A DNA stretch of 64,000 nucleotides from Candidatus Doudnabacteria bacterium (GCA_038230955.1 JBBRMG010000001.1:18312-82311), one strand, 5' to 3'; shown: positions 22,974 through 28,239, counted from the stretch's first letter. Notes: generated by a model from the sequence alone, not told the origin. Numbers and translations: made by a program.

Positions 22974-23216
22974 ATGTCTACCTCAATTACCAAGCAAAAA
23001 AATGAAGCTCTAAGTATTTCCCTGCCTGCCCAATTAAAGCGGGATTTATTGAAACGGGCTCAAAATGACAACGTTGCCGTTAGTCAAGTAGTAGCTGAGG
23101 CTCTCAAAAAACATTTAATTCTCAAGGAATGGCGGGATTTGCAAGACATTTTTGGACCGGCACTGTTAAAACTTGGTATTGATTCAGATGAAGCAGTTGA
23201 GGAATACTTCGGATAA
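22974..23216 (+). CDS. ribbon-helix-helix (CopG-like) antitoxin
   Basis: 80 aa. The RHH pattern is SISLPAQLKRDLLKRAQNDNVAVSQVVAEAL. Its stop lies 2 nt before the PIN gene start. Confidence 0.7.
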   Translation: MSTSITKQKNEALSISLPAQLKRDLLKRAQNDNVAVSQVVAEALKKHLILKEWRDLQDIFGPALLKLGIDSDEAVEEYFG

Positions 23217-23218
23217 TA

Positions 23219-23641
23219 ATGCGATTTGTATGTGATACAAACATATATCTGGCAGCACTTCGTCGAGGTGGTTTTTGTAATACTGTACTGGAATTGATAT
23301 TAAGCACTGACAATACTCATGAATTGTGGGTTTCTGAATTTATCATTCAAGAAACCAAGAAAAAAGCTGCAGTGTTTGCTCTAAAAAAGCTCGCGTCTCA
23401 ATATGATATTGACAGAATTCTGCAAACAATTGAATCGAGCGCTCATATTTCATTTCCTTCCCGTGAACGAATCACTAATGTCTCACGTGATCCCGACGAC
23501 AATAGAATTCTGGAATGCGCTGTGTCGGCTCAAGCCGATGTTATCGTCACTATGGATAAAGATTTATTGGTGCTAAAACAATTTCGCGGCATTGCCATAG
23601 TCCATCCCAAAACTTTCATTTACATGCAGCCCAAGGACTAA
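23219..23641 (+). CDS. PIN-domain toxin (VapC-like)
   Basis: Acidic PIN residues are present (CDTN near the N-terminus, then DPDDNRILECA and VTMDKD). Confidence 0.75.
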   Translation: MRFVCDTNIYLAALRRGGFCNTVLELILSTDNTHELWVSEFIIQETKKKAAVFALKKLASQYDIDRILQTIESSAHISFPSRERITNVSRDPDDNRILECAVSAQADVIVTMDKDLLVLKQFRGIAIVHPKTFIYMQPKD

Positions 23642-24642
23642 GCATCCTCTCTTGTTAACATTTCCTCTAGCACACTTTCTTTAATACCATAGGTATTGCC
23701 ATGATTCATCAAGCCCAAATATGACTGCAAAGTCTCGTCCATGGGACTATTGCGTAATTGCTTCATCATTCTGCGCTTGGTAGTAGTGCGTATAACAGTG
23801 TGATCAGGAAAATGCACCCAGCCAAGAAAATCTACTCCCGAAACAAAAGTTTTCAGATACAGCTTATCCGGGTGCAATGTCAAATTTAGCCTACTTTTCA
23901 AGAATTCTGAAATTTGGGCAATTTGAGAAATTAACGCTTCTCTATCGTCGGACAAAAATACAAAATCATCAGCGTATCTTATGTAGTATTTTGCGTGCAA
24001 TTTGTGTTTCACAAACTGATCAAACTCATTCATATAAATATTACAGAACAGCTGTGATGTTAAATTACCTAATGGTAACCCAACTCCCGGCAAGGTAGAA
24101 AAACTATCAATAATTTGCTCCAGTAATTGCATTAGAGGTAAGTCCGAAATATATTGAGACAGTATACCTATGAGTACTCCATGATTAATGCTGGCAAAAA
24201 ACTTTTTTATATCACACTTTAAGACCCAACATGTCCGTCTATGGTTTCTACTCACTTTATAGGCAAACGCACGGAACCTCTTTATCGCCTTGTACGTTCC
24301 CTTATCAATCCGGCATGAATAGGAATTAGCAATAAAAGTCCTATCAAAAAACGGATACAATGTCCGGTACAAAGCGTGATGCAAAATCCTGTCTCGCACA
24401 GAAGCCTTGTGAATCTGTCGCGGTTTGGGATCAGTAATGCTAAATGCGCTATAATATGAGTGCTGGTATGTGCCGCTGGCCAAATCCCTATGCAACTCAA
24501 TGAGATTGCCCATTAAATTATGTTCAAATTCTTGCACATCTTTACGCTGTCTTTTGCCCCGAACAAACTCAGTCCATGCTTCCAGTAAATTTTCTAGTGA
24601 AATAATATCTTTATAATCATGTCTGAATTGAACCTTGCTCAT
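23638..24642 (-). CDS. DGR reverse transcriptase
   Basis: YADDFVF catalytic motif. The DGR-specific motif LGNLTSQ carries SQ where other RTs have QGxxxSP. About 335 aa with no maturase or endonuclease domain. A TR/VR pair lies adjacent. The ORF continues 8 codons upstream to a TTG at 24666. Confidence 0.88.
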   Translation of the reverse strand: MSKVQFRHDYKDIISLENLLEAWTEFVRGKRQRKDVQEFEHNLMGNLIELHRDLASGTYQHSYYSAFSITDPKPRQIHKASVRDRILHHALYRTLYPFFDRTFIANSYSCRIDKGTYKAIKRFRAFAYKVSRNHRRTCWVLKCDIKKFFASINHGVLIGILSQYISDLPLMQLLEQIIDSFSTLPGVGLPLGNLTSQLFCNIYMNEFDQFVKHKLHAKYYIRYADDFVFLSDDREALISQIAQISEFLKSRLNLTLHPDKLYLKTFVSGVDFLGWVHFPDHTVIRTTTKRRMMKQLRNSPMDETLQSYLGLMNHGNTYGIKESVLEEMLTREDA

Positions 24643-25023
24643 AGTAATAATAGTACCCCCCCCCAACGGATTTTACCAGTATTGCAAAAAGTAAAAATTG
24701 CCTATTTGCTATGGTTTGATTATTACCAAATTCTGCCCAAGTTACATAGGCATTCATTAGGCCATAAAGTCGATAATTTGTTTGTCGAACTCATAGAAGC
24801 GATAGTTTCTGCCAGTTTCTTGTCCCCGCACGAAAAACTACCTTATATTAGGCTAGCCATTAAGAAAAACGACACAGTCAAAATCCTGTTGATGATGCTA
24901 TGGGAAACCCACTCCCTGGATGGCAAACAATATATTGCGCTGTCTGTAAAAATCGACGAAATCGGAAGAATGCTCGGTGGTTGGAATGGTCAAATCACAA
25001 AACAAAACTCTCCTCGAAAATAG
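24619..25023 (+). CDS. avd: DGR accessory variability determinant (Avd-like)
   Basis: The C-terminus EIGRMLGGWNGQITKQ closely resembles Bordetella phage bAvd (EVGRILGSWIARVNRK), and upstream helices align. Lies next to the TR. It is on the strand opposite to the RT. Confidence 0.7.
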   Translation: MSELNLAHSNNSTPPQRILPVLQKVKIAYLLWFDYYQILPKLHRHSLGHKVDNLFVELIEAIVSASFLSPHEKLPYIRLAIKKNDTVKILLMMLWETHSLDGKQYIALSVKIDEIGRMLGGWNGQITKQNSPRK

Positions 25024-25043
25024 GAGGAGAGAAATGAAAGAGA

Positions 25044-25175
25044 ATTGCGGACGCGAAACACAAACTCGTTGTTGCCATTCCAATGATTGTCTAGCTTGCC
25101 ATTGTTGTTGTTCAACCACGGTTCGTCGTCGTTCCGATTGACGTTGAACAGATTCGGATTGCCGTTCGGGTCAGT
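25044..25175 (-). repeat. DGR template repeat (TR)
   Basis: About 132 nt and about 80% identical to the 3' end of the target gene. Nearly all mismatches place TR adenines on the coding strand against non-A bases in the VR. AAC-rich codons (NNNNG, NGNN). Non-coding. Confidence 0.88.
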
Positions 25176-25493
25176 TTTGTATAATATGCCGTCTGCTACA
25201 CCATCCTTTGAGTGCTCTGTTAGCATTCTGGGGATTGAATCGTATTCGGCATTTAAATATGCCCTAGCATACTACACCAAGTTTCTTCATTTTTTTGAAG
25301 TGTCTGCATGCACCACTCTATTTTTAACCGTAATCAAAAATATTCCCGAGGCATGGATACTGGATTCGGTAGCAAACAACCATAATCGTTTGCGTATGCA
25401 CCTATTACCAATGGTATTATAGCAAAAATTTAGGCTGCAAAGGACAAAGATACAAAGTGCCAAGACTAGAGCAAGCTAGTCAAGCACCAAGGA

Positions 25494-27587
25494 CTATTTG
25501 CGGACGCGAAACACAAACCCGTCGCTGCCATCCCAACGATCGCCTAGCTTGCCACTGCTGCTGAGCAACCACGGCCCGTCGTCGTGCCGATAGACGTCGA
25601 ACAGACGCGGACCGCCACCCGAGCCAGTTATGGGGTCCATGGCTATTCTTAAGTATTCACCATTCGGCTGGTCAGCATATGCCAATCTCAATTCTGGCCC
25701 TGTTTGCGGCGGACACAGTTCTAAATTTAATTCTTTAACCCTGTTGAAAATAGCTTCTAGGTTAGCACCGTTAGGAAATCCTAATTGCTCGACCGTAAAT
25801 TTAACCAAATCAACGCGTTCAGACTCGGACAATGCCCGTATTTTTACCAACATGCTTTTAGCGTAGTCAGATATTCTATTTCCTGTTTTCACTAGCTCCT
25901 GCTCGTATTGCATAGGAGTTTTAGTAGACAGCTCAATAGTTTTTCTGAATATCTTTTTCTCTGGGAAAGACTCATATAAATGCTGAATATGTTCAGGCAT
26001 TGTTCGCATTATGTCCGGAGACCACTGGCCAATATATAACTTTGTAGATTCCTTTATTTCCTGCTGCCCCAGAGCGATTTCTTCAGGCTTGCAGTCTATA
26101 TTGGCCACAATGCGAATAATCTTAGCGACGTCGGTCCTAGTCATATCAGGCGTAATTTCCATCTCACCCATTTTGAGGACAAAGACATTGTCATCCGGGT
26201 TAAAATCGTGAAAATCAACTTCACCATGCTCGGTTAAAATATGGTAGTCTTTGACTTTAATATTTCCCAGTTCGCTGTCAGAAATTTTCCTAAAGTCCCG
26301 CAGTTGGCCGGTGTCCGTTTGGGTAGTGCGAAGCTGTTTCAAAGCATCGATTACATCTGCAAAGTAAGGATCCTCCGGACTTAGGTATTCATCGTCCTGC
26401 TTCTTCATTTGCTCAATAGTTTTGGTTTTAAGATTATATTCCATTGTAATAATGGGCGTATCTCGATATACCTTTTGGCTACCGTTATCAAACTTAGGAG
26501 TTACCCTGAATGACAAAATTTCAATTTCACCACGCTTCATCTGGTTGATATACGAATCGCTTGTGCCAACGCAGTGTCTCATGTATTCTGATTCTTCCTC
26601 TAAGTGCGGCATGTTCAGCATGCGAGCGACATAATATTTACCTGACTCAGTTTGAACTAGATTTTCCCACGGATTCACCGCTGCGCTGTCTCCCATTTCC
26701 GCCCGCTTTTTGCGCATCTCTGCAATTTTTTGCAAAGTTTTTTCTTGGTGAACTTCCAGTAGCCGGTGCAAGCTACCTTTATCCGTATCGATAAATTTAG
26801 GGCTTTCGATAATAGCGTCAAATAAGTCATTCAAATCTATACTTTCATTGGCCGTGAAATGACGCGCCAATTTGAGTCTCAGCACGCTCTGCTGGCGCTG
26901 ATCAAAAGCAAAGTCTTGCTGACCGGAAAGCCTGCCACTTAAAGTTTGGTACGCACCATTGATGGCACTTTCTTTTTGCGGCTTGTTGTCAGGAGAAAAT
27001 GAACCCAAGGTTTGTTGGTATCGTTGGTTGAGTTCAGTTAAATACTTGGCTTCAAAAGCTTTTTTACGTTCTTCATCAACTTGCTCTGGCGATTTATCTT
27101 CTGTCAGTGGTTTCTCGTAATAATCGACTGCGTATCCTGCCATATTGTCTGTACGAATGCGTTCAAAGCCGAATCGTTCTAGGACATGATTCAACCTATC
27201 ATTCCAGCCATGAAAATTGAGCCGCATATAACCTTGTTGTTTTGCGTATTCTATGAAAGCTGGTATCTCCCGTAAAGCGCTGCGACCAGTCTGACGGGTA
27301 GTGCCGAAATACTTTATGTAAGCTTCATGCGGAATAAATTCTTCGCAGGCAATATAGCCAGTTATTTCACCTTTATCGCCAGTAATCAATTTGTTGAGAG
27401 GATGGCCATTTTCAAGTGTGCGGATGACATCCTCTACTGCCATAGACCGAATAGCCTCATCCACTTCAGTAATGCCTTGTGTGATAGCGCGGACGCTATC
27501 TTTTTGCTCCTCATTCATAACCAAGCCCGGCTTTTCTTCCAAGCGTTCCGGTATATATACGGTTTCTGGTGTATGACCTGTTTCCAT
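25494..27587 (-). CDS. DGR target protein carrying the C-terminal VR
   Basis: 698 aa from ATG 27587. The ORF is open to 27650 but that would overlap the upstream gene. The C-terminal 44 aa are encoded by the VR (…DPITGSGGGPRLFDVYRHDDGPWLLSSSGKLGDRWDGSDGFVFRVRK). Confidence 0.8.
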   Translation of the reverse strand: METGHTPETVYIPERLEEKPGLVMNEEQKDSVRAITQGITEVDEAIRSMAVEDVIRTLENGHPLNKLITGDKGEITGYIACEEFIPHEAYIKYFGTTRQTGRSALREIPAFIEYAKQQGYMRLNFHGWNDRLNHVLERFGFERIRTDNMAGYAVDYYEKPLTEDKSPEQVDEERKKAFEAKYLTELNQRYQQTLGSFSPDNKPQKESAINGAYQTLSGRLSGQQDFAFDQRQQSVLRLKLARHFTANESIDLNDLFDAIIESPKFIDTDKGSLHRLLEVHQEKTLQKIAEMRKKRAEMGDSAAVNPWENLVQTESGKYYVARMLNMPHLEEESEYMRHCVGTSDSYINQMKRGEIEILSFRVTPKFDNGSQKVYRDTPIITMEYNLKTKTIEQMKKQDDEYLSPEDPYFADVIDALKQLRTTQTDTGQLRDFRKISDSELGNIKVKDYHILTEHGEVDFHDFNPDDNVFVLKMGEMEITPDMTRTDVAKIIRIVANIDCKPEEIALGQQEIKESTKLYIGQWSPDIMRTMPEHIQHLYESFPEKKIFRKTIELSTKTPMQYEQELVKTGNRISDYAKSMLVKIRALSESERVDLVKFTVEQLGFPNGANLEAIFNRVKELNLELCPPQTGPELRLAYADQPNGEYLRIAMDPITGSGGGPRLFDVYRHDDGPWLLSSSGKLGDRWDGSDGFVFRVRK
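25497..25628 (-). repeat. DGR variable repeat (VR) at the 3' end of the target gene
   Basis: Aligns to the TR with about 25 adenine-specific substitutions. Followed 6 nt after the stop codon by the hairpin 25457-25487. Confidence 0.88.
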
Positions 27588-27630
27588 AACTATATTATTA
27601 CAAATATTATAACTCGAGTAAATCGTGGAC

Positions 27631-28239
27631 CTATAACAACTGTACCCCAATAACCCTTGAGAACACCGATACCACCGGCAACAAAATACGTTCTAGTAAC
27701 CCCAAATACAACATTATAAACACCAGAATAAATCCGAACCGTTCCCACTCTAAAATTTTGTAAGTTAGTGCATCGGGCAGGAATGAGGCTACCACTTTGC
27801 TACCATCGAGCGGTGGGATTGGGATAAGATTGAAAGTGCCCAAAACAATGTTAAGTAGTACTATCTGAGTCAAAATTGGTAAGGAAATATAGTTAGTCAA
27901 ACCCAGCTTAATTGGAATAGCGAAGATAATAGCCAAAGCAAAATTGCTCAAGGGTCCAGCGAGGCTAACCAAAGCCATACCGAGTTTACGGGGCTGAAGT
28001 CGATTAAAATTAACGGGCACCGGCTTGGCCGCACCGAAGATTATAGGACTGCCCAGCAATAATAAAGCGGCTGGCAAAAGAATCGAGCCGAATGGGTCAA
28101 TGTGAGAAATTGGGTTTAAAGTAATGCGGCCCTGTTCTCGGGCGGTATCATCACCCAGTCGTTCGGCCATTAATCCATGACAAACTTCGTGGATAATCGC
28201 AGAAAATAAAAGGATTGCTAAAGTGATTATTATGTTCAT
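27631..28239 (-). CDS. site-2 protease family (peptidase M50) membrane metalloprotease
   Basis: HEVCHG HExxH motif in a TM segment. Polytopic. Confidence 0.8.
   Translation of the reverse strand: MNIIITLAILLFSAIIHEVCHGLMAERLGDDTAREQGRITLNPISHIDPFGSILLPAALLLLGSPIIFGAAKPVPVNFNRLQPRKLGMALVSLAGPLSNFALAIIFAIPIKLGLTNYISLPILTQIVLLNIVLGTFNLIPIPPLDGSKVVASFLPDALTYKILEWERFGFILVFIMLYLGLLERILLPVVSVFSRVIGVQLL

Follow-up and report, generated by a model that had tools for sequence, protein, structure and literature searches.

A non-triplet repeat in the avd leader of Patescibacteria DGRs as a probable phase-variation switch of mutagenic retrohoming

The diversity-generating retroelement (DGR) described here carries a run of nine C residues (C9) within the 5' leader of its avd gene, and we regard this tract as probably being a hypermutable contingency locus, through which avd, and with it mutagenic retrohoming, would undergo phase variation by slipped-strand mispairing. 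In the proposed switch, translation of avd would begin at the ATG at 24619, which lies 24 nt within RT, the divergent gene encoded on the opposite strand. The ribosome would then pass a 13-nt spacer, read the tract as Pro-Pro, and enter the four-helix Avd core. Slipped-strand mispairing in replication would add or remove C's, with C9 or C12 giving an Avd of 134/135 aa (ON), and C8, C10, or C11 giving a stop after 24-33 codons (OFF). In the OFF state, RT without Avd would make no adenine-mutagenised cDNA from the template repeat (TR), and the variable repeat (VR) of the PcfJ-like target would be frozen until the tract slips back, a condition that would be both heritable and reversible. The tract, the reading frames around it, the conservation of the repeat in the clade, and its length polymorphism, with one OFF/ON pair among relatives, were observed directly. 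The length changes probably arise by replication slippage, at rates that would be high and reversible. By analogy with Bordetella phage BPP-1, where Avd in complex with RT is reportedly required for cDNA synthesis and retrohoming, we infer that loss of full-length Avd stops retrohoming.

The window (the whole 64-kb stretch of DNA that was analysed) contains a complete DGR of architecture B3, and all of the sequence-level features listed as defining such an element are present (Table 1). The gene order is target(VR)-TR-(avd)-RT, with avd on the + strand between TR and RT, both of which are on the minus strand. Among the mismatches between TR and VR, 25/27 fall at TR adenines, which is the DGR signature. 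According to Wu et al. (PMC5758913), architecture B3, TR-(avd)-RT, makes up 90% of their CPR DGR set, and PcfJ-like targets are listed among CPR DGRs. The RT start was placed at ATG 24642, as alignments to homologs begin at residues 1-3 and the NCBI annotation is that of the 334-aa form; a database protein (P0001) is 100% identical to the window RT over 334 aa. Because RT starts at this ATG, the two genes overlap head to head by 24 nt. Each start codon is the antisense of a His8 codon, that of RT in the case of the avd ATG and that of avd in the case of the RT ATG, and the N-termini across the overlap read, in codon register, MSELNLAH for avd and MSKVQFRH for RT. The head-to-head overlap is kept in most relatives, which implies that the promoter of each gene lies inside the coding region of the other. 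The avd product matched Pfam bAvd at 42.7 bits (cut-off 40), with residues 31-123 corresponding to profile positions 13-104. Since residue 31 aligns with profile position 13, the Avd fold would begin at about residue 18, just past the tract. A predicted terminator-like hairpin sits directly downstream of TR, with the avd stop codon partly inside it. Termination at this hairpin may keep the TR transcript from running antisense into avd, and RT would then need its own promoter.

Table 1. Features of the DGR, in window coordinates.
Feature	Coordinates	Strand	Basis
DGR reverse transcriptase (RT), 334 aa from ATG 24642	23638..24642	-	Pfam RVT_1, E=3.6e-22
avd ORF, 134 aa in ON frame	24619..25023	+	ORF; Pfam bAvd match
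avd leader, residues 1-17: 8 codons antisense to RT codons 1-8, 13-nt spacer, tract			
avd/RT head-to-head overlap, 24 nt	24619..24642	both	ORF coordinates
Spacer between RT start and tract, 13 nt	24643..24655	+	Open in avd ATG frame only
C9 tract (G9 on RT strand)	24656..24664	+	Read directly from window sequence
Predicted terminator-like hairpin (8 pairs) and T run	25008..25031	-	Consensus scan
Template repeat (TR), 135 nt	25045..25179	-	Direct repeat pair with VR, 80% identity
Variable repeat (VR)	25498..25632	-	3' end of target gene
DGR target gene, 718 aa, PcfJ-like domain, VR at C-terminus	25494..27650	-	

On the + strand, the tract and its context read CATAGTAATAATAGTA-CCCCCCCCC-AACGGATTTTACC. 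The preliminary description correctly reported nine consecutive C's but placed them at 24653-24661, 3 nt away from their actual position, although the wider span that it gave (24653-24664) does cover the run. It also located the tract exactly between the divergent avd and RT starts. This does not hold, as the two genes overlap and the tract lies inside avd, 13 nt upstream of the RT ATG. Within avd, the run codes for Thr13(acC)-Pro14-Pro15-Gln16(Caa), codons 13-16 (T-P-P-Q), and is a non-triplet repeat inside a coding region in which a change of length shifts the frame. Changed in silico, the window gives a product of 24 aa with C8, 134 aa with C9, 33 aa with C10, and 135 aa with C12. We read the window as ON because its C9 yields the 134-aa Avd. 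The assignment of the tract to the class of contingency loci is supported, in relatives, at the level of sequence and of populations.

The C9 run is the only G/C homopolymer of at least 7 in the 64 kb window, the next in length being two C6 and one G6. Dinucleotide-preserving shuffles of the window contained a C9/G9 run 0.15 times on average, and 11/100 shuffles had at least one. Taken alone, C9 in the window is not significant and constitutes weak evidence, and a chance homopolymer, or an assembly artefact, without function could account for it. It is the position of the tract and its conservation across related loci that mark it as non-random. Related loci were collected by a scan of one genome per species and a scan of JGI/ENA metagenomes, with 80 loci from each and RTs 58-66% identical to that of the window. 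Almost all came from Patescibacteria/CPR assemblies, and nearly all had a divergent avd beside RT. RT homologs at 58-69% identity number in the hundreds in Patescibacteria, each adjoining avd and a TR/VR pair. No relative of the window RT exceeded 66% identity in the genome and metagenome scans or 69% in the protein database, and no further contig turned up when the window RT (from the ATG or from the TTG), Avd, and P0001 were looked up as exact proteins.

The junction between avd and RT was surveyed in the 144 related loci with enough upstream DNA, and a simple repeat was present in 135 of them. In 125 it was a poly-G on the RT strand, 7-14 residues long with a mode of 9-10, in five a (GT)n, in two a (CT)n, and in two a (CTGG)n. 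The remaining one was a composite T8G8 (L102, 2964-2979), consisting of two adjoining homopolymers, both of which could slip. The repeat was absent or decayed at six further junctions, and three loci had no divergent avd. Repeat units were 1, 2, or 4 nt long and never 3, and in all 125 poly-G loci the G's were on the RT strand. Altogether, 125 G/C runs of at least 7 fell within the 132-nt junctions of the 144 loci, compared to 15 in 1.08 Mb of flanking DNA, an enrichment of approximately 475-fold. The chance or artefact explanation becomes negligible in view of this enrichment and of the repeat at the same junction in 135/144 assemblies, which were made independently of one another in many studies and with many assemblers. 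Tract lengths were also reproducible over independent assemblies of one strain, which argues against assembly noise.

Since repeats other than poly-G are scattered among poly-G relatives, at least five independent replacements of the repeat must have occurred. For example, the nearest RT relative (L060, 84% identical) of one locus with (CTGG)n (L088) carries G9. On this comparison, the conserved feature is a slippage-prone non-triplet repeat at the junction, of no particular sequence, which is the classic footprint of selection for mutability. A place that is conserved without its sequence speaks against both a sequence-specific signal, in RNA or in DNA, and a role as a G-rich ribosome-binding site. 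We therefore consider it highly improbable that the tract is a sequence-specific nucleic-acid element, such as a signal for priming or pausing or a segment of the DGR RNA to which RT-Avd binds, with its length variation being tolerated noise. The constant orientation of poly-G and its constant position beside RT would fit such an element, and functional importance has been reported for the RNA immediately upstream of brt in BPP-1. However, unrelated repeats stand in for poly-G in at least five lineages, some loci without a repeat keep avd and RT intact, and an Rfam search returned no match. The terminator-like hairpin lies between TR and the tract region, and the hairpin adjoining the tract is weak.

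This adjoining hairpin is formed by an inverted repeat, TTTTGC-N7-GCAAAA, found at 24667-24705 in the window and at homologous sites in relatives, where it codes for the conserved Avd motif LLPVLQK. The post-tract hairpin was slightly more stable than synonymous recodings (z=-0.48 in the avd sense and -0.20 in the RT sense), and the minimum-energy fold of the window is a different one. Considered as a strand-specific RNA element, the inverted repeat shows this marginal gain in stability and a weak preference for the RT sense (76 vs 55 loci, p=0.05), and we regard it as mostly a by-product of the LLPVLQK codons.

The distance between tract and RT start in relatives has a mode of 13 nt and ranges from 0 to >90 nt. 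In two loci (L010, ~5901-5994, and L017, ~5865-5994), an insert of ~100-130 nt separates the repeat from the RT start. The inverted repeat CCCCGTTAGAAA...TTTCTAACGGGG flanks the insert, which may represent a small element, mobile or structured, that parts avd from RT. In another locus (L008), two further G10 runs were seen downstream of RT, at 3404-3413 and 5253-5262. The first of these has a context like that of an avd/RT junction, ttgccaaaacgctc-G10-tataataatagaATG, and may thus belong to a second cassette with a switch, arranged in tandem.

For the tract to act as a switch, avd would have to be read from a start upstream of it. As the test start, we used the ATG formed in antisense by the conserved RT His7/His8 codon (CAT), picked from the RT alignment alone and blind to frame; it sits ~34-42 nt upstream of the repeat on the avd strand. 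The frame of this ATG was free of stops up to the repeat in 123/126 loci, compared to 26/126 and 27/126 for the other two frames. In the spacer from the RT start to the repeat, stops occurred in the ATG frame in only 3/77 loci, and in the others in 12/77 and 54/77; the window spacer, read in another frame, is TAG TAA TAA TAG. Codons that would be stops in antisense were rare among the first RT codons. For Leu, TTA and CTA were used in 1/33 cases, compared to 27.6% elsewhere in RT (p=6e-4), and for Ser, TCA was used in 1/38, compared to 18.5% elsewhere (p=0.009). Because the frame, spacer, and codon-avoidance tests agree, the avd frame is taken to run from the His-antisense ATG into the repeat, and these comparative frame statistics place the probable avd start in the window at ATG 24619. 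An internal TTG at 24682, which is common in relatives, could serve as an Avd start that bypasses the tract, whatever its length. The list of downstream starts is unreliable where the Avd alignment begins upstream of the tract, and it was left out of our conclusions.

Among the 135 loci with a repeat, the His-antisense ATG was in frame with the Avd core in 32, while 46 needed an additional nucleotide (+1) and 57 one fewer (-1). The ORF of the Avd core was intact throughout, OFF loci included. Where the repeat was absent or interrupted, 5/7 loci were in frame, versus 32/135 (24%) with a repeat (Fisher p=0.013), and these five (L023, L070, L117, L126, and L194) encode an Avd of 137-150 aa. As a side observation, gene callers often miss or truncate avd (L161-L189, L191-L193), and RT is sometimes run through the tract (P0104, 355 aa). 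Such calls, for avd and RT alike, appear to be a systematic artefact of annotation to which the repeat gives rise in this DGR clade.

These tests also bear on whether the tract controls RT, be it through -35/-10 promoter spacing, a G-rich ribosome-binding site or 5' UTR, or the frame of a TTG-initiated extension. In the window, the G run is 13 nt upstream of the RT ATG, as it is in a similar way in many relatives, the spacer holds no other Shine-Dalgarno-like sequence, and a TTG at 24666 is in frame with RT. The preliminary description was thus right that an in-frame, TTG-initiated extension containing the tract exists in the window, but the extension is not conserved in relatives. It was open, with a start at or before the repeat, in 44/135 loci, which is about chance, and a stop lay between in 29. 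RT homologs align from ATG 24642, and the NCBI call begins at the ATG, so the suggested shift of the RT-extension frame is not supported. The alternative suggestion of altered promoter spacing fares no better, as a sigma-70 consensus scan of 24640-24700 on both strands, made for a phylum whose promoters are poorly known, found no promoter-like site that spans the tract. Moreover, the variable distance from the repeat to the RT start does not fit control of RT, (GT)n, (CT)n, and (CTGG)n are unfit as a G-rich ribosome-binding site, and the frame-specific selection is on the avd strand, not on the RT strand. Control of RT by the tract is consequently very unlikely, and the comparative frames indicate that the gene with a tract-controlled frame is avd, not RT.

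If the repeat is prone to slippage, its length should differ between close relatives. Four near-identical pairs of loci had the repeat as the sole site of an indel. One pair (L161/L162, 99.8% identical over 3990 nt) and another (L175/L178, 99.3% over 2706 nt) differ there by 1 nt, and a third (L025/L105, 99.1% over 4176 nt) by 10 nt in a (GT)n repeat. In the fourth (L078/L142, 99.8% over 2042 nt) the difference is 3 nt, G11 vs G8, and the frame is unchanged. A less similar pair (L099/L104, 97.8%) has a 2-nt difference at the repeat along with two other indels, and a more distant pair (L088/L157) differs by two CTGG units. Contigs that code for an identical RT protein were then compared by group (P0004, P0093, P0076, and P0009). 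By assembly consensus, which is what all ON/OFF calls refer to and in which homopolymer lengths carry some error, above all in long-read assemblies, P0004 has G9 in eight contigs, with a 30-aa product (OFF), and G10 in one (L178), with a 137-aa Avd (ON). In P0004, then, OFF and ON occur as a natural pair whose RT proteins are identical. The P0093 group has G11 in four contigs and G10 in one, both of which are OFF, while P0076 (G7 in nine contigs) and P0009 (G10 in six) are OFF and uniform in length. A further group, P0104, is uninformative, as its gene call spans the tract and identical proteins therefore force identical lengths. Consensus lengths were mostly stable across samples of one strain, which suggests that majorities do not flip often.

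The core idea of the preliminary description, a slipped-strand switch of retrohoming, is strongly supported by this comparison. The place of the repeat is kept while its length varies, some lineages have a different non-triplet repeat there, no indel lies outside the repeat in the four near-identical pairs, and a natural G9/G10 OFF/ON pair exists. Compared across related assemblies, tract length is not uniform at the level of the family.

Diversification of the VR provides a view of DGR activity that can be set beside these states. Samples of the P0093 lineage have a VR that varies at many positions and a TR that is almost unchanged. Between two contigs with an identical RT (L161 and L164), for example, the VR (493-618, L161 coordinates) differs at ~20 positions and the TR at 2. 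VR differences with a stable TR point to recent DGR activity in this lineage, where the consensus avd (G11) is out of frame. More generally, ~76% of the consensus sequences are OFF, yet VRs still diversify. A VR that changes under an OFF consensus requires an ON minority or else a degree of decoding across the tract.

Decoding of this kind is the basis of a rival view, in which what happens at the poly-C is recoding, by RNA polymerase stutter or a ribosome shift (+1/-1 on CCC-C, tRNA-Pro), and not DNA switching. Pro-Pro-Pro stalling may help, and a small set fraction of full-length Avd would be made at any DNA length, with DGR activity remaining low. DNA slippage and RNA-level or ribosomal slippage cannot be told apart in static sequences, and some of our observations suit recoding. 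About three quarters of consensus sequences (the ~76% above) are out of frame, while Avd cores are intact and VRs diversify in an OFF-consensus lineage. Polymerase slippage is known on A/T runs, and the tract lengths of 9-14 fall within the range in which it occurs. In addition, there is a weak hairpin after the tract when it is read in the avd sense (z=-0.48 vs synonymous recoding, p=3e-5). However, a programmed frameshift should have a uniform offset, and the offsets found (32 in frame, 46 needing +1, and 57 needing -1) are not uniform. The (GT)n, (CT)n, and (CTGG)n repeats at the site in nine loci are classic DNA-slippage repeats and not known recoding signals, and loci without a repeat are simply in frame. 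The DNA length itself differs between near-identical strains, and the hairpin is mostly a by-product of the LLPVLQK codons. On balance, we think recoding in place of DNA switching unlikely. It may also act alongside DNA phase variation, adding leak expression.

A combination of this sort could amount to control at two levels, in which DNA slippage would set the avd frame, with most populations OFF at consensus, and rare polymerase or ribosome slips on the poly-C/Pro-Pro-Pro run would give trace Avd in OFF cells. We hold this to be distinctly doubtful. If true, two gates, one stochastic and one set by translational state (tRNA-Pro/EF-P), would act on DGR mutagenesis in an entire clade of Patescibacteria, and the tract would be a combined genetic and physiological rheostat on targeted hypermutation.

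The switch that we favor, slippage of the DNA within avd, has counterparts in well-characterized systems. Poly-G/poly-C contingency genes of Neisseria, Haemophilus, and Campylobacter (e.g., hmbR/hpuAB of N. meningitidis; PMC3786947, PMC5084427) likewise have a G/C run of ~8-14 in the 5' part of the ORF, where a change of +/-1 nt truncates the protein, and the position is conserved while the length varies among close strains. They differ in that their hosts are host-adapted pathogens, whereas the hosts here are Patescibacteria (CPR), and in that they encode surface or restriction genes, whereas the controlled gene here is an accessory factor of targeted mutagenesis. The repeat described here also lies in a leader that overlaps the divergent RT gene. 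Phasevarions (phase-variable mod genes) and the coding homopolymers of the mismatch-repair genes MSH6/MSH3 (PMC11250277) are similar as second-order switches on the mutability or regulation of other sites. Their effect is a genome-wide change in methylation or mutation rate, in contrast to the one considered here, which would be confined to one VR of one target through adenine-specific retrohoming. The contingency loci of T2/T4 phages (PMC12633550) share reversible polymerase-slippage frameshifts, bet-hedging, and an occurrence outside classical bacterial pathogens. They hit structural or host-range genes directly, while the switch here would gate the diversifier of a target gene. In promoter-spacer SSR switches (Neisseria porA/opc, H. 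influenzae hif), the repeat is between -35 and -10, a feature that the consensus scan did not find here.

Among DGRs, that of BPP-1 (mtd-avd-TR-brt) has in common with the window element an RT of the DGR clade, a four-helix Avd, an adenine-specific TR/VR pair, and a VR at the C-terminus of the target. Unlike in BPP-1, avd is here inverted and overlaps RT head to head, an arrangement, architecture B3, that is typical of CPR DGRs according to PMC5758913, and its leader holds a simple repeat. The full-text literature searched, which included a DGR review and large surveys and had most subscription papers outside its scope, contained no report of a repeat in avd or of repeat-based control of a DGR. 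The mechanism itself matches known translational phase variation by poly-G/C; the novelty is its link to the avd of a DGR, for which an earlier description may exist. We know of no description of repeat-based control for BPP-1 or any other studied DGR.

Uncontrolled retrohoming is a risk to the target gene, and to our knowledge little is known about cellular control of DGR activity. Our analysis suggests that the main DGR lineage of Patescibacteria, TR-(avd)-RT, has a built-in stochastic master switch. A hypermutable repeat would gate a hypermutation machine, and cells could toggle targeted hypermutation at random. If so, the ON or OFF state could be read from sequence in thousands of environmental DGRs, as tract length modulo 3 relative to the defined ATG, and compared with VR diversity in metagenomes. 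Such a switch would also explain the frequent annotations that lack avd or cut it short, and the occasional ones that extend RT too far. Contingency loci would be extended to the candidate phyla radiation, and the repeat would offer a simple handle for engineering switchable DGRs.

On the other side of RT, the window contains a PIN-domain toxin gene (23219-23641, Pfam PIN_3) and a small partner ORF upstream of it (22974-23216), which are convergent with RT. The stop of the PIN gene overlaps the RT stop by 4 nt, and rpsL, rpsG, and fusA lie just beyond.
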